A stretch of 64,000 nucleotides of DNA from an uncultured Holophaga sp. (lineage in GTDB: Bacteria > Acidobacteriota > Holophagae > Holophagales > Holophagaceae): the NCBI GenBank assembly GCA_963664825.1, contig OY761614.1, positions 416,001 to 480,000 on the forward strand. The letters are read 5' to 3'. Position 1 is the stretch's first letter; each line of letters starts with the position of its first letter. The position numbers and the translations under genes are program-made. This document shows, piece after piece, positions 45,208 through 60,606 of the stretch. The notes below the pieces were generated by a model, which searched no databases, was not told the DNA's origin, and saw nothing but the letters and a program-made list of their open reading frames with translations.

Positions 45208-47862
45208 ATGGATACCTCAACCATCTGGGCGAAATCAGGCGATGCCGCCGGGGGCGCCTATCTCCCCCTATCGCTTCATCTCATCGATGTGGCTTGCTGC
45301 GCAGATGCCATCCTCGACCTCGAGCCCGAGTCGACCCGTGAACGCATGGGCGCCTGCCTGGGTTTGCCCTGGGAACAGGCACGGCCATGGGTCCTCCTTC
45401 TCGTCGCTTGCCATGACATCGGGAAGGCCTGCGCGCCCTTCCAGGCAAAGTGGGCTGCCGGGCGCACCGCGATCGAAGCCGGGGGCCTTCGTTTTCCTCC
45501 CGCAGTTGATACTCACATCAACCACGCTTGGGTAAGCCAGGCCTACCTGGAGGAGGAACTCACCCATTGTGGATGGCCGTCGGCACTTGCCACGCTAGCT
45601 GCTGATGCCGTTGGATGCCACCACGGCGAGCGGGCCGGAGAATCCCGCCTCAGCCACTTGCGAGATAACCGCTACGTTTGGCAAGACTCTGTCTGGGCCC
45701 AGGCTCGGGACCTCCTATTCAAGGCCCTTCTTGGTTTATTCAAGCCCGGCCTCCCGCCTCCTCGGGAATGCCTCGATGGGCCCGATTTCATGTTGTTGTC
45801 AGGCCTGACCAGCTTTGCCGATTGGATCGGCTCCAGCGAAGTGCACTTCCCCTTCGGAAACCTCACGGATTGCCAGGATCTGGAAGGTTGGTGGAAGACG
45901 AGGCTGGTCGCAGCAAATGAGGCCCTGGCCAGCATTGGCTGGTCACCACGCACACCGCTCTTCCATACCGACTTGGACTTCCAGGAAGTGTTTCAGTTTC
46001 CTCCACGCCCCCTGCAAGAAGCCGTCGCACAGGCTGTGGAAACAGTCTCGGGTCCATGCGTCCTGCTCGTGGAAGCCCCCATGGGAGAAGGCAAGACCGA
46101 GGCCGCCTTCTTCGCCCACGGCCAGCTTCAGCGGCGTTTCGGCCATCGAGGACTCTATGTCGCCCTCCCCACCAAAGCCACCGGCAACGCCATGTTCGCA
46201 AGGACCATCGCGTTCATCACCCAGCAGGCACCCGAGCGAACGGTTGACCTCCAGCTCCTCCATGGGGCGACTGAGCTTAACGAGCGATTCCAGGAACTCC
46301 GACAAATTTCCATCCTGGATCCGGAAGGCGAAGGCCGAATGCGGGCGGGAGAGTGGTTCACGCACCGCAAACGCGCCCTGCTCTCCGAATATGGCGTTGG
46401 AACCGTGGATCAGGCCCTCCTTCCGATCCTGCCGGTTCGGCATCAGTTCGTCAGACTCTGGGGTCTCGCCAACCGCGTGGTGATCTTCGATGAGATCCAC
46501 GCCTATGACACCTACACAGGCACTCTGATGATCCATCTCATCCAATGGCTGGTCGCCCTTGGTTCCTCAGTGGTGCTCCTCTCTGCGACCCTGCCTCCAA
46601 AAATCCGCCGATGCCTTGCAAGCATCCTGGGCGCTTCCATGCCGGACGAGGAGACTCCTTATCCTCGCCTCACGGTGATCCAGTCGGGAAACGTGCACCA
46701 GGTCCACTTCGAGGCCGATCCGAACCGGAGGCGCACTCTCCAGGTGCAAGCCATCTCTGCCGACCTCACATCCATCCAGGCTGCTCTGGAATGTCGGCTC
46801 GGATCTCGCGGATATGCGTTGGCCCTGCTCAATACCGTCCAGCGCGCCCAGGCACTCTACAGCCTTTACCCCGCAGGAGAACCCATCCTCGTCGGAGAGG
46901 TCCAGGTCGGCAAGCGTTTGCCAGATGGCACGGAAGTGCTGCTCTTCCATGCGCGCTTCCCGGCTGACCTCCGCCAGATCCGGGAGAACCATGTCATCGA
47001 GACCTTCGGAAAGAAGGCCACCCGCACCACGCGCCGCATCCTCATTGCGACCCAAGTAGCAGAGCAGAGCCTCGACCTGGACTTCGATCTGATGCTGACG
47101 GACCTAGCGCCCATCGACCTCATCCTCCAGCGAGCGGGTCGGCTTTGGCGGCACGAACGGGAGAACCGACCCGCAAAGACGCCCATCCTGCTGATTGCGG
47201 GCTTGGAGGGTCCCGAGCCGCCCTCTTTCGGCACCCCCTTGTGGTGGGGTGCCGTCTACCGCGAGGATGTCTTGCTTCGCACCTGGGCGCTGCTGAAGAA
47301 TCGGGACAGCCTCACCCTTCCAGACGAGATCGACACGCTTGTCATGGCGGTCTACGAGGACGGAGTCCCGATTCCAGATTCCCTGATCCCCCGGTTGGAC
47401 GTCGCCATTCAAGAGTCGCTAGGCAAGGGTTATGCAGAACGGACCAAGGCTCTCATGGCCACCATTGGTTCTCCAGACGACAGTTCCTGGAATGACCCTT
47501 CGCGCTACATCAAGGCCGACGAGGATGAGCCCGGCCTCCACCCCAGCCTACGCGCCCTCACGCGCCTGGGGGACGAATCCGTGACGGTCATCCCGATCCG
47601 GGACAGCGAGGACTTCCACCCCGCTCAGATCCCGAGTGCCCCTCAGGCCCGAGCCTGGTCCCTCCGATCGCTCAGTCTGAGTCGAAAGCAAATCGTCAAG
47701 CAGCTCCAGGCCCAGGGGATCCCAGAGGGATGGCAGCAATCCTCCCTGCTCCGCCATAGCTACCCGATGCACCTGGACGCGGAAGGCCGCTGGCACGAAA
47801 ACCCGCTCGTCCACTTGGATGAGGCCCTTGGGTTGGTGTTCGAGACAAAGGAGGTCCATTGA
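45208..47862 (+). CDS. cas3: Cas3 HD nuclease-helicase
   Basis: WAKS, HLID, CHDIGKA, FADWIGS, APMGEGKT, FDEIH, LSAT, QRAGRLWRH. Confidence 0.97.
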   Translation: MDTSTIWAKSGDAAGGAYLPLSLHLIDVACCADAILDLEPESTRERMGACLGLPWEQARPWVLLLVACHDIGKACAPFQAKWAAGRTAIEAGGLRFPPAVDTHINHAWVSQAYLEEELTHCGWPSALATLAADAVGCHHGERAGESRLSHLRDNRYVWQDSVWAQARDLLFKALLGLFKPGLPPPRECLDGPDFMLLSGLTSFADWIGSSEVHFPFGNLTDCQDLEGWWKTRLVAANEALASIGWSPRTPLFHTDLDFQEVFQFPPRPLQEAVAQAVETVSGPCVLLVEAPMGEGKTEAAFFAHGQLQRRFGHRGLYVALPTKATGNAMFARTIAFITQQAPERTVDLQLLHGATELNERFQELRQISILDPEGEGRMRAGEWFTHRKRALLSEYGVGTVDQALLPILPVRHQFVRLWGLANRVVIFDEIHAYDTYTGTLMIHLIQWLVALGSSVVLLSATLPPKIRRCLASILGASMPDEETPYPRLTVIQSGNVHQVHFEADPNRRRTLQVQAISADLTSIQAALECRLGSRGYALALLNTVQRAQALYSLYPAGEPILVGEVQVGKRLPDGTEVLLFHARFPADLRQIRENHVIETFGKKATRTTRRILIATQVAEQSLDLDFDLMLTDLAPIDLILQRAGRLWRHERENRPAKTPILLIAGLEGPEPPSFGTPLWWGAVYREDVLLRTWALLKNRDSLTLPDEIDTLVMAVYEDGVPIPDSLIPRLDVAIQESLGKGYAERTKALMATIGSPDDSSWNDPSRYIKADEDEPGLHPSLRALTRLGDESVTVIPIRDSEDFHPAQIPSAPQARAWSLRSLSLSRKQIVKQLQAQGIPEGWQQSSLLRHSYPMHLDAEGRWHENPLVHLDEALGLVFETKEVH

Positions 47863-49382
47863 AAGAATTCAACCTCATCGACGAAGCCTGGATCCCTGTG
47901 CGTTTCCAGGACGGGAGCCGCGGCGAGTTCGGTATTCTTGAAACCCTCCGAAGAGCACCGGATATCGCCGCCCTCGAAGATCCATCTCCCCTGGTGACCG
48001 CCGCACTCCATCGCCTGCTGCTCGCCGTGCTCTACCGTGCCCTTCGCGGCCCCTGCGACATCGACGAAGCCAGAGCCCTCTTCAAGAGTGGGCTTCCGAT
48101 GGATCGGATTGAAGCCTATCTCCAAGAGTGGCGTCATCGATTCGGGCTATTCAACGAGACGCATCCGTTTGGGCAGATCCCGGATTTCGAACCAAAATCG
48201 TGGCGAGCCTGGACCGTGCTGGCCGCTGAGCACAACGCCGACAACGCGAAGGTTCTCTTCGACCATATCGATGTCCAGGCACCCGGGAGCATCCCTGAAG
48301 CCGAAGCGACTCGGTGGTTGATGGCCACCCAAACCTTTTCCGTAAGCTGCGGGAAGAGTGAACTCTCTCACACGGGAACCGCGCCATCCGCGACGGCAGC
48401 CCTCCTGCTCCCACTTGGGATGAACCTCCAGGACACTTTGCTCCTCTCGCTTGTACCTCAGAGTCGGCATCTGATCGAAGACGACCTGCCCATTTGGGAG
48501 CGAGAACCTGAGCGAGTGGAGGAGCTCAAGCAAGGAATCGAACGTGAGAGTTGCGGTCTAGCCGACCGATATACCTGGCGGACAAGGTCCGTCAGATTCC
48601 AGCCCGATGGTGAAGGGATCAAGAATCTGGCCTTTGCCTCTGGAATCCAATCCACTTCGCAGGACCAGCTGGACCCCATGCAGGCCTACCGAGAAATTAA
48701 GGACAAAGGCTTACTTCCCCTGGCGTTTCAGGAACGAGGGCTATGGCGTGAATTTGATACCCTACTGCCCGATCAAAATGATCATTCCCCCCAAAACATT
48801 CGCCACGCTGTGGAAGTTTCAAAGGGCTTTCCTGCACGCTTTCCGGCCACAGTGCTCATCCTTGGTCAGAGCAATAACAAGGCCAAGATCGAGTATTGGC
48901 GCATGGAGCGGTTCGCCCTTCCACGGTCCATTCTTGGCGCACGATTCGTTCGGGAGGACATCCGTTCGTTCCTCAATCAGGCCCAGACCAGCCAGTCTGC
49001 CCTCTGGTCCGCTTGCAGCACCTACGCCCGCCTTCTGATTGCCCGCGGAGAGCGCAGCCCTGACAAGAAGGACATCCGTGCCTTCGTGGATCAGATGCCC
49101 TGCATACCCGCCTACTGGTCCAGCCTGGAAGCGGCCTTCCATGCCCTTCTCCAGGTCTACACGGAGGAGGCGATCTTCGAGGTCATCCGTCGAAGTTGGC
49201 TGTATTCCGTGCGGGAGGCCCTCCGCGATGCATGGAATCTCCATCGGCAGTCTGCCCGCACGGGTGATGCCTGGGCCATTCGTGCCCTGGTCCGGGCCGA
49301 AGGCTACATCGGTGCGGAGCTGAAAAAGTTGGATGCCGTCATCCGGGAAATCGATGCGGATCTGGAAAAGGAGAAAGCATGA
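47859..49382 (+). CDS. cse1: Type I-E large subunit Cas8e/Cse1
   Basis: FNLIDEAWIPV, ALHRLLLAVL, FDH, YTWRTR; TTG start overlapping the cas3 stop. Confidence 0.92.
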   Translation: MKEFNLIDEAWIPVRFQDGSRGEFGILETLRRAPDIAALEDPSPLVTAALHRLLLAVLYRALRGPCDIDEARALFKSGLPMDRIEAYLQEWRHRFGLFNETHPFGQIPDFEPKSWRAWTVLAAEHNADNAKVLFDHIDVQAPGSIPEAEATRWLMATQTFSVSCGKSELSHTGTAPSATAALLLPLGMNLQDTLLLSLVPQSRHLIEDDLPIWEREPERVEELKQGIERESCGLADRYTWRTRSVRFQPDGEGIKNLAFASGIQSTSQDQLDPMQAYREIKDKGLLPLAFQERGLWREFDTLLPDQNDHSPQNIRHAVEVSKGFPARFPATVLILGQSNNKAKIEYWRMERFALPRSILGARFVREDIRSFLNQAQTSQSALWSACSTYARLLIARGERSPDKKDIRAFVDQMPCIPAYWSSLEAAFHALLQVYTEEAIFEVIRRSWLYSVREALRDAWNLHRQSARTGDAWAIRALVRAEGYIGAELKKLDAVIREIDADLEKEKA

Positions 49383-49900
49383 GCACGTTCATCGAATGGC
49401 TGGAGGCCAGGCAGGCCGAGGATACTCGTGTTCGCGCTGTGTTGAAGCGAAGCCTTGCCTTCGAACCAGGTACGTACGTGCCAGCATTCCCTTGGGTGGA
49501 GCCCTTCCTTCAGGGACCCGAAAGACCATGGCGCAGGAAGGCCCATTACCTCGTGGCAGGACTCTGGGCAGCCCAATGGCGCGAAGGCCAAACAATGCCA
49601 GGGTGCACCCTTGGCCGAGTCGCCGCGATGTACCAGAACGATCGAAAGGCGGGCAGTACGGAGCGGCGCTTCATCACGCTCCTGGATGCCGACGAGGACC
49701 AGCTTCCCCACAGGCTTCGCCAGATGGTTGCCTTGCTTAAGGAATACACCCTCGACTTCGAAGATCTCCTTTCATCCCTTCTTCACTGGCAGGACGACAC
49801 CAAGTGGGTCCAGAACGCCATGGCCCGCGACTTCTATCGAAACCTCCACACCAATGGCGACATGAGCGCTCAAACCACACCTTCCGAGGAGAACCTCTGA
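49379..49900 (+). CDS. cse2: Type I-E small subunit Cas11/Cse2
   Basis: RAVLKRSL, ERRFITLLDAD, LRQMVALL, ARDFY. Confidence 0.92.
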   Translation: MSTFIEWLEARQAEDTRVRAVLKRSLAFEPGTYVPAFPWVEPFLQGPERPWRRKAHYLVAGLWAAQWREGQTMPGCTLGRVAAMYQNDRKAGSTERRFITLLDADEDQLPHRLRQMVALLKEYTLDFEDLLSSLLHWQDDTKWVQNAMARDFYRNLHTNGDMSAQTTPSEENL

Positions 49901-51060
49901 TGAAGACCCTGATCGAGATCCACGCCCTGCAGAACTACGCTCCTTCCAACCTCAACCGGGACGACACCGGTGCTCCGAAGGATGCTTTCTTCGGCGGAAC
50001 CCGCCGGGCGCGAATCAGCAGCCAGTGTCTCAAAAGAGCCGTGCGCCAGCACTTTTCGGCACTCGTGGAGACAGGCGCCTTGGTTCAAGATGACTTGGCC
50101 GCTCGGACCAAGCGCATCACCGAATCCCTCACGAAGCGTCTCGTAGCGCTTGGTCACGACGAAGCGGAAGCCGAGAACAAGACCCGCCTCGCCCTCGCAG
50201 CCATGGAACTGAGCGTCAAGGAGGATGGAAAGACCGAATGCCTGCTCTTCCTCGGGCAACGCGAAATCACCGGAATCGCAGATATCATCCACGAGAAATG
50301 GGATGTTCTCATCGCTTCCGAAGCACCTGTGGCTGAGGGAAAGAAGGCTGGGAAAGCCAAAAAGCAGGCCGCCCAAGGCGCTGATCCTGAACTCAAGAAG
50401 GCCCTCGACAAAGTCTTCAATGGCGGCAAGGCCCTGGACGTAGCCCTCTTCGGCCGCATGTTGGCCGACATGCCAAAGAAGAACCAGGAGGCCGCCTGCC
50501 AGGTAGCCCATGCGATCTCCACGCACGCGGTCGAGCGTGAATTCGATTTCTACACGGCCGTGGACGACCTGAAACCTGATGACACAGCCGGGGCGGACAT
50601 GATGGGCACGGTGGAATTCAATTCCGCCTGCTTCTACCGCTATGCGGTCCTTGACTGGACCAAGCTTGTAGAAAACCTCCAGCAGGATGAAGACCTCGCT
50701 TCCAAGGGCCTCCAAGCCTTCCTGCATGGCTTCGTGCTGAGCGAACCCACGGGCAAACAGAACAGTTTTGCCGCCCACAACCCGCCTGAATTCGTGGCAA
50801 TCACCGTGCGCCGGAATGGCGCACCCAGGAATCTTGCCAATGCTTTTGAGATGGCCCTGCGAGTGAAGAAGGGCGATTCCATCACCCGCCTTTCGGCCGA
50901 GAAGCTCGCCCAGAAAGCCTGTCAGTTCAGGACTGCCTTCGGCGGTGAGGATACGACCTATGTCCTCAATCTGGTGGACGCAGGCATCGACGGATTCGGA
51001 ACCACTGTCGACTCTCTCGACAAGCTGGTCGAGGCATCTATGAAGGCCGTGAGGTCCTGA
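49900..51060 (+). CDS. cas7: Cas7e backbone subunit
   Basis: NLNRDDTGAPK, RARISSQCLKR, ALFGRM, QVAHAISTH, DFYTAVDD, PTGKQNSFA. Confidence 0.96.
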   Translation: MKTLIEIHALQNYAPSNLNRDDTGAPKDAFFGGTRRARISSQCLKRAVRQHFSALVETGALVQDDLAARTKRITESLTKRLVALGHDEAEAENKTRLALAAMELSVKEDGKTECLLFLGQREITGIADIIHEKWDVLIASEAPVAEGKKAGKAKKQAAQGADPELKKALDKVFNGGKALDVALFGRMLADMPKKNQEAACQVAHAISTHAVEREFDFYTAVDDLKPDDTAGADMMGTVEFNSACFYRYAVLDWTKLVENLQQDEDLASKGLQAFLHGFVLSEPTGKQNSFAAHNPPEFVAITVRRNGAPRNLANAFEMALRVKKGDSITRLSAEKLAQKACQFRTAFGGEDTTYVLNLVDAGIDGFGTTVDSLDKLVEASMKAVRS

Positions 51061-51768
51061 ATGGCGACCCTCCTTCTGCGCCTAGCAGGGCCCATGCAAT
51101 CCTGGGGCACCACCAGTCGCTTCGATGAGCGGGACACCGGGCGGGAACCGAGCAAGTCGGGCATCCTTGGCCTGCTCGCCGCCGCCTTGGGCATCGACCG
51201 CGAGAACTGGGTGGATCTGGAACCGCTCACTCGTCTAGCCATGGGTGTGCGGCATGACAGGCCCGGGCATCCAGCCAAGGACTACCAGACAGCCGGATGT
51301 TCCAGGTCCGATACGATCATCCGGGCAGACGGTTCCCCGGCCAAGGATGGCGGAGTGGTCTCCACCCGCCATTACCTCGCCGACGCCGCCTTTCTGGTGG
51401 CCCTGGAATCGCCCAGCCGCAATCTACTGGAACGCCTCCATGCCGTGCTCCAAGACCCCACATGGCCTCTGGCTCTGGGGCGCAAGTCCTATCTGCCTTC
51501 GGAGCCAATCTGGCTTCCTGATGACTCAAACCCCATCCAGGAAGCCCCACTCCGGGACGTGCTGACCCGGCAGCCCTGGATGACCAAGCGCCGCAAGGAG
51601 GAACCTCTCCCGGAGCGCCTGCGCCTGTCCCTTGAGTCCCCGGATGGTACCGGCTCCCTCCGCATGGATCAGTTGCTGTCTTCCTTCGCGGAACGGCGCT
51701 TTGGGGCCCGGTTCATCACCTCTGAATGGATCCCGTTCCCGGGGGAGGCTGCCAATGTTCCTGCATAG
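51061..51768 (+). CDS. cas5: Cas5e
   Basis: LRLAGPMQSWG, PSKSGILGLLAAALG, RHYLADA, LGRKS. Confidence 0.96.
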   Translation: MATLLLRLAGPMQSWGTTSRFDERDTGREPSKSGILGLLAAALGIDRENWVDLEPLTRLAMGVRHDRPGHPAKDYQTAGCSRSDTIIRADGSPAKDGGVVSTRHYLADAAFLVALESPSRNLLERLHAVLQDPTWPLALGRKSYLPSEPIWLPDDSNPIQEAPLRDVLTRQPWMTKRRKEEPLPERLRLSLESPDGTGSLRMDQLLSSFAERRFGARFITSEWIPFPGEAANVPA

Positions 51769-52435
51769 GCTTCACCTCAACCTCCGCAGCAAGGAAGCGC
51801 GCCGGGATCTCGCCGATCCCTACCAGCTTCACGCAACCCTGAGTCGAGCCTTCAGTCCCGCGGATGTGCCATGCCCGCCCGGGGCCTTCTTGTGGCGCCT
51901 GGAGCCCGAGACAGACACTTCTGGCGCCGCCCGCATCCTGGTTCAGAGTCGCGAGCTTCCGGAATGGGATCGCATTGCCTTGAAGGACTGGCTGGAACGT
52001 GCCCCCGATCCTGCGGTGGATCTCCGCAATCGTTTGGGATTGGACCACCTTCACGTCGGTCAACATTTTCGTTTCCGCTTAAGGGCCAATCCCAGCGCAA
52101 TCAAGGCTGGGCGCCGAGTCGGGCTTCTCAAACCGGAGGACCAGGAAGCTTGGCTCATCCGCAAGGGACAAGATCAGCACGGGTTTGAACTCCTACACCA
52201 GGATTCAGTCGATTTCTTCGATGGGGCTGATTCCAGACCTGACATTAGGACCTCCCAGCCCCAAACGCTCCGAGGCCGCCAGGTTTCAGGCAACACCATC
52301 CAAATTTTCTCAGCCCTCTTCGATGGAACCCTTCAGGTGACCCATCCGGATGCCTTTCGCGACGCCTTGGCCCGCGGCATCGGGCACGGGAAGGCTCTCG
52401 GCCTTGGCCTTCTGTCTGTTGTGCCCCTGCCATGA
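51755..52435 (+). CDS. cas6e: Cas6e/Cse3 crRNA endonuclease
   Basis: YQLH, LWRLE, FRLRANP, G-rich loop GIGHGKALGLGLL. Confidence 0.95.
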   Translation: MFLHRLHLNLRSKEARRDLADPYQLHATLSRAFSPADVPCPPGAFLWRLEPETDTSGAARILVQSRELPEWDRIALKDWLERAPDPAVDLRNRLGLDHLHVGQHFRFRLRANPSAIKAGRRVGLLKPEDQEAWLIRKGQDQHGFELLHQDSVDFFDGADSRPDIRTSQPQTLRGRQVSGNTIQIFSALFDGTLQVTHPDAFRDALARGIGHGKALGLGLLSVVPLP

Positions 52436-53343
52436 AACTCGAATCCAACCCCATCCCGATGAAGGAACGTTCCACCATGGTCTGGCTTCAGTACGGCCAG
52501 ATCGATGTGCAGGATGGTGCGCTGGTGCTCATCGACAAGGACGGGGTCAGGATCCACATCCCCGTGGGTGGGCTGGCTTGCCTGATGCTCGAACCAGGCA
52601 CACGCATCACCCACGGAGCCGTGGCCCTGGCGGCCTCGGTGGGTTGCCTGATCCTATGGGTCGGAGAAGGTGGCGTGCGCCTCTATTCGGCAGGGCAACC
52701 CGGCGGGGCTCGCTCGGATCGCCTGCTGTACCAGGCGAAACTGGCGCTGGATGACGATCTGCGCCTGAAGGTGATCCGATCCATGTACCGCTTCCGGTAC
52801 AAGGAGGAGCCCCCCGCTAGGCGCAGCATCGAGCAGCTCCGGGGCATCGAAGGCGTCCGAGTGAGGACCATGTACAAGCTCCTGGCCCAGGAGCATGGGG
52901 TGGAATGGGGGAGGCGCGAATATGACCCTGACGATTTCGAAAGCCAGGACCCTATCAACCGCTGCCTGAGCGTGGCCAATCACTGCATGTACGGCCTGTG
53001 CGAAGCCGCTGTCCTAGCGGCAGGCTACGCCCCGGCCATCGGGTTCATTCACACAGGGAAACCCCTCTCCTTCGTCTATGACATCGCTGATCTCTTCAAG
53101 TTCGAGACGGTGGTGCCCATCGCCTTCAAGGTCGCCGCCAGGAAGGGCAGCGAGCCCGAACGGGAGACGCGCCTCTACTGCAGGAACAGTTTCAGGAAGC
53201 ACAACCTGCTGGAACGTGTGATTCCAACCATCGAAGAGATTCTGGCTACGGGCGGTATCGCAATCCCCAAGCCCCACGAGGAAGCTGTTCCCATGGCCAT
53301 TCCCAACAAGGAGCAGACAGGAGATGCTGGTCATCGTGCTTGA
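52432..53343 (+). CDS. cas1: Cas1 (type I-E)
   Basis: LMLEPGTRITH, WVGEGGVRLY, LRGIEG, GFIHTGKPLSFVYDIAD. Confidence 0.97.
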   Translation: MKLESNPIPMKERSTMVWLQYGQIDVQDGALVLIDKDGVRIHIPVGGLACLMLEPGTRITHGAVALAASVGCLILWVGEGGVRLYSAGQPGGARSDRLLYQAKLALDDDLRLKVIRSMYRFRYKEEPPARRSIEQLRGIEGVRVRTMYKLLAQEHGVEWGRREYDPDDFESQDPINRCLSVANHCMYGLCEAAVLAAGYAPAIGFIHTGKPLSFVYDIADLFKFETVVPIAFKVAARKGSEPERETRLYCRNSFRKHNLLERVIPTIEEILATGGIAIPKPHEEAVPMAIPNKEQTGDAGHRA

Positions 53344-53659
53344 GAATGCCCCGCCCAGACTCAAGGGCTATCTGTCCCGCCTCCTGCTGGAACTCCGGGC
53401 CGGTGTCTTCATCGGCACCTATTCCACCCGAGTGCGGGAGCGCCTGTGGGAGACGATCCGGAAAGAGATTGGCCCAGGTAATGCCGTTCTGGCATGGGCA
53501 GCTCCCAACGACGCCGGATTCGATTTCGACACCTGCGGCGAGAACCGGCGAATCCCCGTCATCCTGGATGGCCTGAAGCTCTGCGCCTTCCGCCCGGAAG
53601 AGACCCCAAATCCAGTTGAAAAATCCGGTAGGTTCTTTGACAACGACACAAAGACTTGA
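53324..53659 (+). CDS. cas2: Cas2 (type I-E) with a C-terminal tail running into the leader
   Basis: MLVIVLENAPPRLKG, LLELRAGVFIG, RERLW, DGLKL. Confidence 0.93.
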   Translation: MLVIVLENAPPRLKGYLSRLLLELRAGVFIGTYSTRVRERLWETIRKEIGPGNAVLAWAAPNDAGFDFDTCGENRRIPVILDGLKLCAFRPEETPNPVEKSGRFFDNDTKT

Positions 53660-53681
53660 ATCAAGATGGTTAGAGGGAAGT
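53600..53681 (+). promoter_or_regulatory. CRISPR leader, largely overlapping the cas2 3' end
   Basis: AT-richer segment directly before repeat 1; IHF-like AATCAAGATGGTTA at 53659-53672 (near-consensus, one extra base). Left boundary approximate. Confidence 0.6.
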
Positions 53682-56600
53682 CCGTTCCCCGCACACGCGG
53701 GGATGATCCGTGAGTCGCTTGTACGTCCCTGGCTACGTCCCACCGTTCCCCGCACACGCGGGGATGATCCGAGCTGGCCGCCACCTCGCGTGCCGCCCTC
53801 CAACCGTTCCCCGCACACGCGGGGATGATCCGACGTTGCGTGATGAGGACGCCGAGGATCTGCGCCGTTCCCCGCACACGCGGGGATGATCCGGCTGATC
53901 TCTGCTCACGCGGGAGGCTGGGAGCCCGTTCCCCGCACACGCGGGGATGATCCGTGGGATTTCCTGTCCAAGGTGGACCTTTCCAACCGTTCCCCGCACA
54001 CGCGGGGATGATCCGCCAAGGCCACGGCCCAACCAGTGAGGTTGAGCCCGTTCCCCGCACACGCGGGGATGATCCGCGGCCATGCGAGAGGCTGGGGACC
54101 TCTCGGGCCCGTTCCCCGCACACGCGGGGATGATCCGATAGAGATGGCAATGCAATCAATGCCTCTCTTCCGTTCCCCGCACACGCGGGGATGATCCGAA
54201 GGACACCGCGACCCGGCGCATTGCCATCTACCGTTCCCCGCACACGCGGGGATGATCCGATCAATCAGGTCCTCGTCGCCCCTCACCAACTCCGTTCCCC
54301 GCACACGCGGGGATGATCCGCTCATGCGCCATGTGGAGCGGGCCGGACAGTTCCGTTCCCCGCACACGCGGGGATGATCCGTCCCATCGTCAATCCCGAA
54401 TTCGAGATCGGAGCCGTTCCCCGCACACGCGGGGATGATCCGGAGATCAGCAAACAAGGCGCCTTCTACACCGGCCGTTCCCCGCACACGCGGGGATGAT
54501 CCGGGACGTAGAGACAGGAAGGTCGGCACCCGGGACCGTTCCCCGCACACGCGGGGATGATCCGGCCACGGGCATTGAAAGCGCCACCCTCGATTACCGT
54601 TCCCCGCACACGCGGGGATGATCCGGGCTTCAGGCCGCCCCCCTTGCTCTCGGTGGACCGTTCCCCGCACACGCGGGGATGATCCGTCGGCGTGCCAGTA
54701 TTTGCCCACCTTGTGGAGCCGTTCCCCGCACACGCGGGGATGATCCGTTGCTGCTGGGTTAATCCTTTTTGTTCCCTAGCCGTTCCCCGCACACGCGGGG
54801 ATGATCCGCCTTCCTGGTCCCTGCCCTCCAGGCCCTGGGTCCGTTCCCCGCACACGCGGGGATGATCCGCTGCCCGTAGATGCTGGGCTTGCCCATGTCT
54901 TCCGTTCCCCGCACACGCGGGGATGATCCGTCTGATGTATTCCATGGTTGCCCCGCTGCACGCCGTTCCCCGCACACGCGGGGATGATCCGAAAGGAACT
55001 GAATCCCCATGGAAAACGAACTGCCGTTCCCCGCACACGCGGGGATGATCCGCCCGAGGCGACCTCGTCTTCCGTGCTGAATCGCCGTTCCCCGCACACG
55101 CGGGGATGATCCGGTTCACATGTGGCACTCCGGCAGCCGGGTCTGCCGTTCCCCGCACACGCGGGGATGATCCGCGCGGCTTTGATGAGCCCGTAGCCAT
55201 CAGGGTCCGTTCCCCGCACACGCGGGGATGATCCGAGAGGTGATGTAGGTGCCAGCCGCAACACCAGCCGTTCCCCGCACACGCGGGGATGATCCGGATC
55301 TCCAGAACATCCATGGCATGACTAAACGCCGTTCCCCGCACACGCGGGGATGATCCGATCGCATTGCGGGAAGCACTGGCACGAACGCTCCGTTCCCCGC
55401 ACACGCGGGGATGATCCGTGGCAGCGAGCGAGGATGCTTTCTCTATCGCGCCGTTCCCCGCACACGCGGGGATGATCCGGCCACGGGGATACCTCCCGCT
55501 GGGTGGCCCTGCCGTTCCCCGCACACGCGGGGATGATCCGGTGAGGTGGGGTTTCATCTGGCCGCCTTTGGCCCGTTCCCCGCACACGCGGGGATGATCC
55601 GATCACCCTGGCGGAGGCGCAGGCCTTGAAACACCGTTCCCCGCACACGCGGGGATGATCCGCATCCATCATCGCCTGTTGGGTAGGCCTGGCGCCGTTC
55701 CCCGCACACGCGGGGATGATCCGCGCCATTGCTACCGCCATGTGGTCGTTGTTTCCCGTTCCCCGCACACGCGGGGATGATCCGGTGTTGAGTTGATTCA
55801 TGGCTACTCCTCTCCCCCGTTCCCCGCACACGCGGGGATGATCCGCCAGTAATCGACGTAGGGCTGGGCTAGCTGGCCCGTTCCCCGCACACGCGGGGAT
55901 GATCCGCTCTACACCGATCCCAAGGGCAAGGCGCTCCTCCGTTCCCCGCACACGCGGGGATGATCCGCGGGTTTCGAGCCTATTGAGCACATCACTCACC
56001 CGTTCCCCGCACACGCGGGGATGATCCGCTCGACCTGGGTGAGGTGGTGGTTACTCGCCACCGTTCCCCGCACACGCGGGGATGATCCGTCCTGAGCGGC
56101 GGTCGCATTGTCAGCGGCCAGCCGTTCCCCGCACACGCGGGGATGATCCGGCCGCGTCCACGTTCAACAACCTTCCGCTCATCCGTTCCCCGCACACGCG
56201 GGGATGATCCGGGTGATCAGGAACGCATCAATGATATTCGCCACCGTTCCCCGCACACGCGGGGATGATCCGGCCGCGTCCACGTTCAACAACCTTCCGC
56301 TCATCCGTTCCCCGCACACGCGGGGATGATCCGAGATGCTGGCCATCGCCCTGGAGAACCGGATGCCGTTCCCCGCACACGCGGGGATGATCCGGACGGT
56401 GCGGCATGACGCGCTGGACCCTCCGACCGTTCCCCGCACACGCGGGGATGATCCGGGCCTCCCGCGCCGCGTTCTCCCAGCTCACGCCCGTTCCCCGCAC
56501 ACGCGGGGATGATCCGACCCAGAGCTGGATCCAGGGGTTCCCGGATGTCCGTTCCCCGCACACGCGGGGATGATCCGCTCGTAGCCGCAGCGAGATTAAT

Positions 56601-59600
56601 TGCAGAACTCCGTTCCCCGCACACGCGGGGATGATCCGCCGGTCCTGAATCCCGTGGCAACCTCCGCGTCCCGTTCCCCGCACACGCGGGGATGATCCGG
56701 GATGCCATCCATGGAAATGACGGCATGACATCCGTTCCCCGCACACGCGGGGATGATCCGAGCACGCGGCATGGAGTGACTCCGGGGAAACTCCGTTCCC
56801 CGCACACGCGGGGATGATCCGCCATCGGCATCTCTGGCGCCTACCTTTCCGCACCGTTCCCCGCACACGCGGGGATGATCCGCGAAACGGCGGACCCAAT
56901 ACTATCATCGCATCCCGTTCCCCGCACACGCGGGGATGATCCGTGTGGCCACGAGTTCATCGTCACCACTGCTTACCGTTCCCCGCACACGCGGGGATGA
57001 TCCGGTCTTCATGATGCTTTCTCCTTCCGCTCTGCCCCGTTCCCCGCACACGCGGGGATGATCCGTCCTCCCGATGCAGGTGACTGGCGAGGATGGCCCG
57101 TTCCCCGCACACGCGGGGATGATCCGGGAGGCAGCATGAGCGGAGGCGGCGGTCACATCCGTTCCCCGCACACGCGGGGATGATCCGCACCGGAAACGCC
57201 GGGAACTGATTCGGCTGGGCCGTTCCCCGCACACGCGGGGATGATCCGTTTTTCCGAGAACCATTCGAGAGCGGGATGCACCGTTCCCCGCACACGCGGG
57301 GATGATCCGACTCCGATCACCATCGAGTCCGAGGCGGACGGCCGTTCCCCGCACACGCGGGGATGATCCGGAAGCCGACCGCTCGGACATGCGCTGGGCC
57401 TTCCGTTCCCCGCACACGCGGGGATGATCCGCGGCTAAACATCCACCGTTCCGGCGATGGCACCCGTTCCCCGCACACGCGGGGATGATCCGTCCTTCAG
57501 GCGAATCTCGACATGGCCAAAATCCCGTTCCCCGCACACGCGGGGATGATCCGCGGGAAATGGGACTCGCATCGCGGGCAATGAACCGTTCCCCGCACAC
57601 GCGGGGATGATCCGGGGCAGCAAGAGAGCCTCCAGCAGGCCAAGACCCGTTCCCCGCACACGCGGGGATGATCCGCATCTCGCCTTTTTCCATGGCCCAC
57701 TTAGCAGCCGTTCCCCGCACACGCGGGGATGATCCGATCATTCCCGGACCCCACGCGGATCGTATTCGCCGTTCCCCGCACACGCGGGGATGATCCGCCC
57801 ACGGCCCCAGGACCATGGACGAGGCGAACCCGTTCCCCGCACACGCGGGGATGATCCGATTGGCGTCACGGGCGGTCGTTTCCAGCACGGCCGTTCCCCG
57901 CACACGCGGGGATGATCCGTAGCCATGTCAGACCACCCGCTTCAGGAGTTGCCGTTCCCCGCACACGCGGGGATGATCCGATCCGCCCGTTCATCGCGCC
58001 GCCTCCGAGCTGCCGTTCCCCGCACACGCGGGGATGATCCGCGTTGTAGTACCCGTAGCCCATCCCGACCCGGCCGTTCCCCGCACACGCGGGGATGATC
58101 CGAGCCACCCTGGTTTTAATCCCCAGCATGACCTCCGTTCCCCGCACACGCGGGGATGATCCGCAGTATCACAAGGTGTCGCTGATCCTCACGGGCCGTT
58201 CCCCGCACACGCGGGGATGATCCGTCCTGCTTTTTGATCTGATCTTGAGCCTCCAGCCGTTCCCCGCACACGCGGGGATGATCCGGGAGCGGGACTGGAG
58301 GCACGTAGGGCTGGCATCCGTTCCCCGCACACGCGGGGATGATCCGTGGGGGGCCTACAACGACACTCTCTCCACCGGCCGTTCCCCGCACACGCGGGGA
58401 TGATCCGGCACCTCGTACCCGTGGACCGTTGGCGCGGGCCCGTTCCCCGCACACGCGGGGATGATCCGATCTCGGCACCCTGGGCCAGCCAGTCACGGAG
58501 CCGTTCCCCGCACACGCGGGGATGATCCGTTCCGCGCCTGGCTGGAATTCCTTCATGCGGCCCGTTCCCCGCACACGCGGGGATGATCCGCAGCTCACGC
58601 ATGACCAACTTGGGAAACTGCTCCGTTCCCCGCACACGCGGGGATGATCCGCTGGCGTCATGAGCGAGAAGCAAACCTTCATCCCGTTCCCCGCACACGC
58701 GGGGATGATCCGTTCTCCCGATGCAGGTGACTGGCGAGGATGGCCCGTTCCCCGCACACGCGGGGATGATCCGGTGAAGCAGAACCCGATCGACAGCGAC
58801 CCGAACCGTTCCCCGCACACGCGGGGATGATCCGCGCAATGGCAGCTCTTAGCGCCAAATTGACGGCCGTTCCCCGCACACGCGGGGATGATCCGATTTA
58901 CCACGATCAAGGCACCAGCCATGCAGACCGTTCCCCGCACACGCGGGGATGATCCGTTCAACCTCATGGCGGCCATCTGCGCACAGGACCGTTCCCCGCA
59001 CACGCGGGGATGATCCGGATTTTCGGTCCTTCTCCGGGATCTCGGTCCACCGTTCCCCGCACACGCGGGGATGATCCGTCGAGATCCGTGTCCAGCACCA
59101 CGTTGATGCGCCGTTCCCCGCACACGCGGGGATGATCCGTGGAAACCGGATTCTTAGTTGTCGGGTGCCATCCGTTCCCCGCACACGCGGGGATGATCCG
59201 GAGACCCGATGCCGCTTGAAATTGAGCCCGAACCGTTCCCCGCACACGCGGGGATGATCCGTTCAGCGCCTGGCTGGAATTCCTTCATGCGGCCCGTTCC
59301 CCGCACACGCGGGGATGATCCGTGGGATTTCAATCCCTGGACAGGTGCCAGGGTCCGTTCCCCGCACACGCGGGGATGATCCGGGCGACGCGGTGATTAT
59401 GGCGGCCAGCGCGGACCGTTCCCCGCACACGCGGGGATGATCCGACTCCCGGGCAGCGGGGCCAGGCAGTAACGCCCCGTTCCCCGCACACGCGGGGATG
59501 ATCCGTCTTCGTAGTGGGCGGATAGGGCTGCAATCATCCGTTCCCCGCACACGCGGGGATGATCCGCCGGTGCTCATCGGCTATGCGGTTCACTTCAACC

Positions 59601-60341
59601 GTTCCCCGCACACGCGGGGATGATCCGCCGCGATCCGCGTGGCTGAGATGCTGTCCACCCCGTTCCCCGCACACGCGGGGATGATCCGCCCCGGGATTAC
59701 CGCTGGTGCGCCACCTGTTCCCGTTCCCCGCACACGCGGGGATGATCCGATTGGAGGTATGAGCAGGATTCCCCTCCCCCACCGTTCCCCGCACACGCGG
59801 GGATGATCCGGATTCAACCAAGGTCGAGATCATCCATCCCGTCCGTTCCCCGCACACGCGGGGATGATCCGCCACGAGACGGCTGTCCTTGCACTCCGGG
59901 GGACCGTTCCCCGCACACGCGGGGATGATCCGCAGCGCCCCCGATTCGTCCGGGCCACAGGCCGCCGTTCCCCGCACACGCGGGGATGATCCGTCCAGGA
60001 CGAGGCTCAAGCGGGCGGGGGAGATCCGTTCCCCGCACACGCGGGGATGATCCGCTGCTGGAGTTCGACCGTCATGCCGTGGCCTTCCGTTCCCCGCACA
60101 CGCGGGGATGATCCGGGGTTCAGGGTCGCCATCTTCTCGGGTGCAGACCGTTCCCCGCACACGCGGGGATGATCCGCGGAGCGCAGAACAGAGCCAAAGG
60201 CTGCGCATCCGTTCCCCGCACACGCGGGGGTGATCCGAGCACCCGGAAGCCCCATCAATGCGAGTGGTGCCGTTCCCCGCACACGCGGGGATGATCCGTT
60301 AGCTAGGGGGCGAGGCCCCCGGAAAGAGGACCGTTCCCCGC
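53682..60341 (+). CRISPR. Type I-E CRISPR array: 109 full 29-nt repeats (CCGTTCCCCGCACACGCGGGGATGATCCG), 1 truncated repeat, 109 spacers of 32 nt
   Basis: Exact 61-bp period from 53682 to 60331; CCCCGC/GCGGGG hairpin; one variant repeat seen (A>G at 60230); last repeat stops after 11 nt. Confidence 0.99.
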
Positions 60342-60393: not shown

Positions 60394-60400
60394 TGTTCCC

Positions 60401-60606
60401 CAGACGCTGAGGCCAGGCTCCGCCCGGTCGCAGCGTGGGGGTTCCGGGGAGGCATCGTGAGCGCCAGCAAGCAGGCGGTTCCGCCGAACAGCGCCAGACG
60501 CTGAGGCCGGGCTCCGCCTGGCCGCGGCGTGGGGGTCCCGGGGGGACACCGCGAGCAATAGCGAGCAGGCGGTCCCCCCGGACAGCGCCGTCTCCCCCCG
60601 GACAGC
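60401..60606. repeat. Two tandem 94-bp palindromic units plus a partial third
   Basis: Units at 60401-60494 and 60495-60588 both start CAGACGCTGAGGCC(A/G)GGCTCCGCC; unit 2 has a CCGGGGGGAC/GTCCCCCCGG stem; CCCCCCGGACAGC is repeated at 60594-60606. Confidence 0.8.

Follow-up and report, generated by a model that had tools for sequence, protein, structure and literature searches.

The closest described system is type I-E CRISPR-Cas as found in Escherichia coli K-12 (Cascade-Cas3 with Cas1e-Cas2e), in which an eight-gene operon accompanies an array of 29-nt repeats ending in CCG and 32-nt spacers, the targets are preceded immediately 5' by AAG, and spacers are added at the leader-proximal end; the accessible part of PMC8482600 links AAG to the repeat end. 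According to the available text of PMC4678831, interference in E. coli is often intact despite a single seed mismatch. The excerpts of PMC6212716 (Kunne et al.), also on E. coli, give guanine on the target strand (dG) as the most harmful class for interference, with dG:rA clashing sterically and dG:rU forming a favorable wobble away from the thumb positions in the modeling, and predict an excess of G in natural escapers, the detection of which would need very deep metagenomes. In the available part of an E. coli preprint (PMC12871591), rA-dG at position 4 does more harm than rU-dG at position 1 or 2. The portion of PMC6568314 at hand lists AGG among the interfering PAMs of E. coli, and that of PMC6282206 describes, as a priming signature in the same species, a scarcity of internal AAG that is most marked at the seed end. 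The locus described here has the same operon, repeat and spacer lengths, repeat end, PAM and leader-proximal addition as the K-12 system, and differs in that cas2 lies directly before the array; the seed tolerance data used for comparison are those of E. coli Cascade. As in the reports on seed escape and priming cited above, as far as their available text goes, it holds one-base seed differences between older and newer spacers with dG on the target strand, AAG PAMs and some depletion of internal AAG. It is unlike priming as described in those excerpts, where spacers come from DNA in cis to the priming site and recapture of the priming site itself is not among the descriptions.

The window, a stretch of 64,000 nucleotides, contains a complete type I-E operon (45208..53659) comprising cas3, cse1, cse2, cas7, cas5, cas6e, cas1e and cas2e, followed by a type I-E array (53682..60298); both are on the forward strand, as are the leader, the trailer end and all spacers given below. 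All eight genes had NCBIfam matches above the curated cut-off, cas3 through the core and HD domain models. The array consists of 109 full repeats of 29 nt with 108 spacers between them, every spacer being 32 nt and every unit 61 nt, and only one of the 3161 repeat bases deviates, in repeat 108, leaving 108 of the 109 repeats perfect. The leader region (53600..53681, approximate) overlaps the 3' end of cas2, and a by-eye comparison found similar sequence in front of the array of a same-genus genome (G001); a search of the region for a sigma-70 consensus site found none. The operon, the 29-nt repeats and 32-nt spacers with a leader, and a 5' PAM of the AAG/AWG type together identify the system as standard type I-E, as the original prediction had it, and its biology is ordinary CRISPR biology with one testable idea. 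Since the leader adjoins cas2, decayed repeats occupy the opposite end and AAG lies 5' of the targets, spacers with lower numbers are newer; spacer 83 is thus older than spacer 56, also as predicted, and spacer 92 is older than spacer 80.

An all-against-all comparison of the 108 spacers singled out three pairs, which scored 30 to 32, while every other pair scored 12 or less, so that the resemblance of spacers 56 and 83 is far beyond chance. Spacer 56 (57066..57097) and spacer 83 (58713..58744) are identical at 31 of 32 positions, with C in the former and T in the latter at position 2; they lie 27 units apart and have unrelated neighbors, which agrees with what had first been noticed. The comparison also disclosed two pairs beyond the original prediction. 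Spacer 80 (58530..58561) and spacer 92 (59262..59293) differ solely at position 4, where the newer has C and the older A, and spacers 41 and 43 (56151..56304) have the same sequence and flank a spacer 42 that differs from them, reflecting either a local duplication or a double capture in the same episode. Both one-base pairs consist of single units rather than blocks, the target strand of the newer allele carries dG in each, and they are the two non-adjacent single-mismatch pairs among the 5778 spacer pairs of the array.

The target of spacers 56 and 83 was sought through a 21-nt core, which gave one metagenome match, a contig (L016) with 30/32 identity to spacer 56. The match forms the 3' end of an 84-aa ORF assigned to phrog_11043, directly before the terminase large subunit gene, and the spacers correspond to its coding strand. 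The frame that had been guessed from the array, VLPMQVTGEDG, proved to be that of this ORF, in which the C/T change is synonymous. A small gene is located directly upstream of terL both in L016 and in L025, a relative matched by several spacers, and from this gene position we regard the target as a putative and widespread terminase small subunit gene. For phrog_11043, to which the protein of L016 alone was assigned, no function is listed; there was no Pfam match and no Atlas name for a terminase small subunit, the Atlas clusters being unnamed and viral. The family occurs in phages with a P22-like portal (PF16510) and coat (PF11651), and its C-terminal motif peptide is shared by the spacers. 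Of 133 family members, 4 carry phrog_11043, and the regions of these 4 had no spacer match within 7 mismatches.

Homologous sites were collected with a back-translated pattern, which yielded 22 viral loci, and with a protein search (best 80 of 97), and all loci examined carry the motif at 48 distinct sites; because the patterns fix the peptide, this sample is biased toward silent variation. The peptide encoded by the spacers is identical to the C-terminal motif in 36 of the 48, and the variation falls almost wholly at third codon positions. Position 2 of the spacer corresponds to a silent Val wobble base, which was G at 22 sites, T at 17, C at 8 and A at 1. The seed accounted for 33% of site heterozygosity, or 39% among the 36 sites with the identical peptide. 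The three bases upstream, which depend on a Lys codon, were AGG at 37 sites, AAG at 9 and AGA at 2, which supports a PAM slot of the AAG/AGG kind at the target site, and we take AAG to have been the probable PAM in the true invader. AAG was combined with the C allele at 2 of the 48 sites and with the T allele at 3. The suggestion that both alleles would be found among protospacers was thus borne out in part: both occur among homologues, and the exact 32-mer of neither spacer was present at the 48 sites, the closest having 2 mismatches. The best natural matches reached 30/32, for spacer 56 in L016, L023, L028 and L262 and for spacer 83 in L031 and L262. Exact cores of the two spacers were absent from the viral contigs, and none was found at 3 mismatches in 156 other genomes of the class, searches that may miss records very near the host. 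The closest matches sit in records without a link to the host by other spacers, and L025 has 5 mismatches to spacer 56 and 4 to spacer 83.

One phage record (G157, comprising L025 and L092), which has the P22-like portal and coat, was matched by spacers 11, 61 and 94 in addition to 56/83, and relatives (L042-L045, L079, L080 and L303) repeated matches of the G157 type. Spacer 61 (57371..57402) matched the P22-like portal gene (PF16510; 29/32 in L025 and L042, 28/32 in L043-L045), spacer 94 (59384..59415) the terminase large-subunit gene (26/32 in L025, 25/32 in L079 and L080), and spacer 11 (54321..54352) a large ORF of the group (30/32 in L303, 27/32 in L092). AAG lay 5' of each of these targets and of that of spacer 79; weaker matches of spacers 36, 74 and 103 (6 to 7 mismatches) were without AAG, and one diverged site of spacer 61 had CAG. 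Reversed-spacer controls gave no matches in 0.68 Mb, two in 1.06 Mb and one in 0.09 Mb of partly overlapping loci, all with 7 to 8 mismatches. As the matches extend from spacer 94 to spacer 11, this P22-like group was sampled over most of the history of the array, which links the bacterium to the group through at least 83 spacer additions. G157 has 646 AAG sites in 24.6 kb, or about 1000 per 38 kb, and the expected number of same-site pairs is 0.4, 1.4 or 5.8 if 30, 54 or 108 spacers, an assumed share, came from one 38-kb lineage; only 4 sites are tied to the group among the 108 spacers. With sampling through most of the array's history, chance alone predicts about one to six same-site pairs, and hot prespacers, as described in the available text of PMC6282206, would raise this number.

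All four AAG/AGG target sites in G157 were on the coding strand, a number too small for a trend, and spacer 79 was antisense in the more distant L081. Spacers 36 (55846-55877) and 79 (58469-58500) matched the antisense strand of head-region genes at 26/32 in phage records L037 and L081, which suggests further invader groups. No P22-like prophage was detected in the host by tblastn with the four phage proteins, no full-length spacer match was present in the host outside the array, and the host had no spacers in common with four same-class genomes. An apparent match in one genome (G018) was rejected, since it was GC-rich, covered spacer 46 only in part and lay next to bases resembling the repeat.

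As a baseline, we assembled at least 122 loci found by repeat pattern and 9 loci from relatives into a control set, which is not a random sample, of 131 I-E loci with 2366 spacers and 45,823 within-locus pairs. Among the matches listed, 17 pairs were exact and 6 were near (1 to 5 mismatches). Two of the six near pairs, again among the matches listed, differ at every third base only, as expected from separate capture from related phage genes, and seed positions hold 6 of their 23 mismatches, compared with 22% expected (P = 0.39, among the matches listed). Recapture of a site from a diverged allele therefore recurs in arrays without seed bias. Same-site spacer pairs with 3 to 5 mismatches were seen in L207, L186, L206 and L114, two of them purely codon-periodic. 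The one single-mismatch control pair among the matches listed (L110) is adjacent and differs at position 6. The four same-class genomes, which partly overlap the control set, contributed 319 spacers and 24,723 pairs, with 6 exact and no near pairs. Non-adjacent single-mismatch pairs were found neither among the 45,823 control pairs, as listed, nor among the 24,723 same-class pairs, and it is unusual for one array to have two; pairs of this kind may be merged in short-read assemblies. A literature search that covered few subscription journals found no precedent for a natural one-base pair in the same array, which is not evidence of absence.

The mismatches that the older spacers would form with the newer alleles were derived from the sequence. 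Spacer 83 would face rU:dG at position 2 and spacer 92 would face rA:dG at position 4. The former is of the mild class in the available E. coli data (PMC6212716 and PMC12871591), unlike that of the seed-escape cases. Pair 56/83 is therefore a poor candidate for escape, and 80/92 is a better one. Internal AAG was counted in the spacers (53711-60269) and was less frequent than CTT (21 versus 43, P = 0.008); relative to a phage reference it was the most depleted triplet (21 observed, 47 expected, z = -3.8), and relative to the spacers' own dinucleotides the depletion was only z = -1.6. The deficit lies in the PAM-distal half (positions 17-30, 4 AAG versus 27 CTT; positions 1-16, 17 versus 14), the opposite of the positional pattern reported for E. 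coli priming in the available part of PMC6282206. Control arrays lean likewise, with 655 AAG versus 812 CTT among the matches listed.

In our judgment, spacers 56 and 83 were probably captured independently from two alleles of a persistent phage group. Cas1-Cas2 would have taken one PAM-flanked 32-mer on two occasions, separated by 27 acquisition steps. The two donors, both of the P22-like group, would have differed silently at a third codon position within a conserved motif of the putative terminase small subunit. The limited number of AAG-flanked sites and the frequent sampling of the group would explain why this site was captured again. That the donors were two members of the group and that ordinary allelic variation was the cause has about an even chance; spacer 83 would then probably still have recognized the variant allele, and the base at position 2 would have been under no strong selection. 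The original prediction had instead proposed that a seed mutation permitted escape and that the variant was then re-acquired. Its second element, capture from two alleles, is likely; the seed share at the site and the mild rU:dG count against escape as the cause. In a fuller form of this proposal, spacer 83 would have selected a phage with a silent seed change, either a new mutation or one already present among standing variants. The host would then have acquired the variant site, probably by priming, and 92 would likewise have been followed by 80. We regard it as tentative and somewhat unlikely. Both one-base pairs do fall in the seed, a coincidence with a chance probability of about 0.05 to 0.09 that is partly post hoc, the first pair having been chosen for that property. 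Both newer alleles also carry the most harmful class of target-strand base (PMC6212716, available text), the rA:dG at position 4 ranks with the more harmful mismatches in the excerpts of PMC12871591, a silent change would cost the phage nothing, and the under-representation of internal AAG is a reported priming signature (PMC6282206, in part). Against this, the prior for seed placement at the terS-like site is already 33 to 39%, the control arrays show no seed bias, the AAG deficit is slight against the spacers' own dinucleotides, is PAM-distal and is shared in direction by the controls, and no time-ordered phage alleles were found. That the array keeps two time-ordered records of phage escape, both with seed changes placing guanine on the target strand, is unlikely. 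If it were true, one-base pairs in single long-read arrays would provide a polarized record for testing escape rules, as regards both position and the identity of the base, in thousands of genomes with no need for phage sequence, and natural escape could be measured from the host side alone. A codon-aware baseline is needed before a one-base spacer pair in the seed can be taken as a sign of escape.

Duplication of one repeat-spacer unit within the array followed by a point mutation is decidedly unlikely. Spacer duplications are well documented in the available part of the review PMC8047081, which allows for an identical spacer to be gained at a second encounter and treats blocks as a sign of duplication; unlike the repeated spacers described there, the copies here differ by one base, which for 56/83 is silent in the identified phage gene. 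The array does have the exact pair 41/43, exact control pairs outnumber near ones among the matches listed (17 versus 6), and the one control single-mismatch pair is adjacent. Spacers 56 and 83, however, are 27 units apart with unrelated neighbors. With the substitution rate of the repeats, P is 0.02 for one pair to have changed (0.11 if the upper 95% rate is used) and 0.002 for two changes among three pairs (0.046 if the upper rate is used), although this clock is possibly slow because repeats may be purged or homogenized. By a hand count from the codons, about 24 of 96 random changes would be silent, as the observed one is. An assembly artifact, whether a single wrong consensus base or a chimera joining the arrays of two strains, is very improbable. 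The host genome, a single contig with a completeness of 96.6%, is probably a metagenome assembly, which leaves room for such an error, as do the other-strain-like loose ends and the variant at 58935 in one sequencing run (X1; contigs, word share 0.30), and no contig spanning spacer 56 or 83 was among the 8 of its 281 pieces examined. Sequence of the run falls in all 30 bins of the region, with no alternative base listed for either spacer. In addition, 108 perfect repeats of 109 and a uniform unit of 61 nt imply a very low base error rate, and it would be unlikely for two errors of this kind to have arisen with one being silent in the target gene. Two separate captures remain the reading that we prefer for 56/83.

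Run X1 has exact pieces in common with the array; one of its contigs had a C-to-T variant at 58935 in repeat 87, and loose ends resembled spacers of other strains.

The target of spacers 80 and 92 was also sought. The exact core and two degenerate frames gave no target in viral contigs, and none was found in genome contigs or in the 156 class genomes. Ten phage records contained only chance-level pattern matches, the examined loci had no peptide match, and phage and plasmid collections returned repeat matches or weak matches only. The best plasmid match (E = 0.2, gapped) was rejected as chance.

The trailer end of the array (60299..60341) consists of the last 32-nt spacer and an 11-nt half repeat. 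The final repeat stops after these 11 bases and is followed by sequence that is single-copy in the genome (60331-60400), and similar ends occur in several genomes of the family; the sequence after the broken repeat looks like what we take to be an IS21-family end. Between the clpA region and the array there is a 94-bp GC-rich tandem duplication (60400-60589). Three to four I-E-like repeats form a degenerate mini-array outside the window, far from the cas genes (G000:C1:2797584-2797760). In the same-genus genome, inspection of L002 (G001:C352) by eye suggests that a remnant of the cas2 3' end, the leader and the array come directly after cas5; cas6e, cas1 and most of cas2 seem to be deleted or misassembled there.
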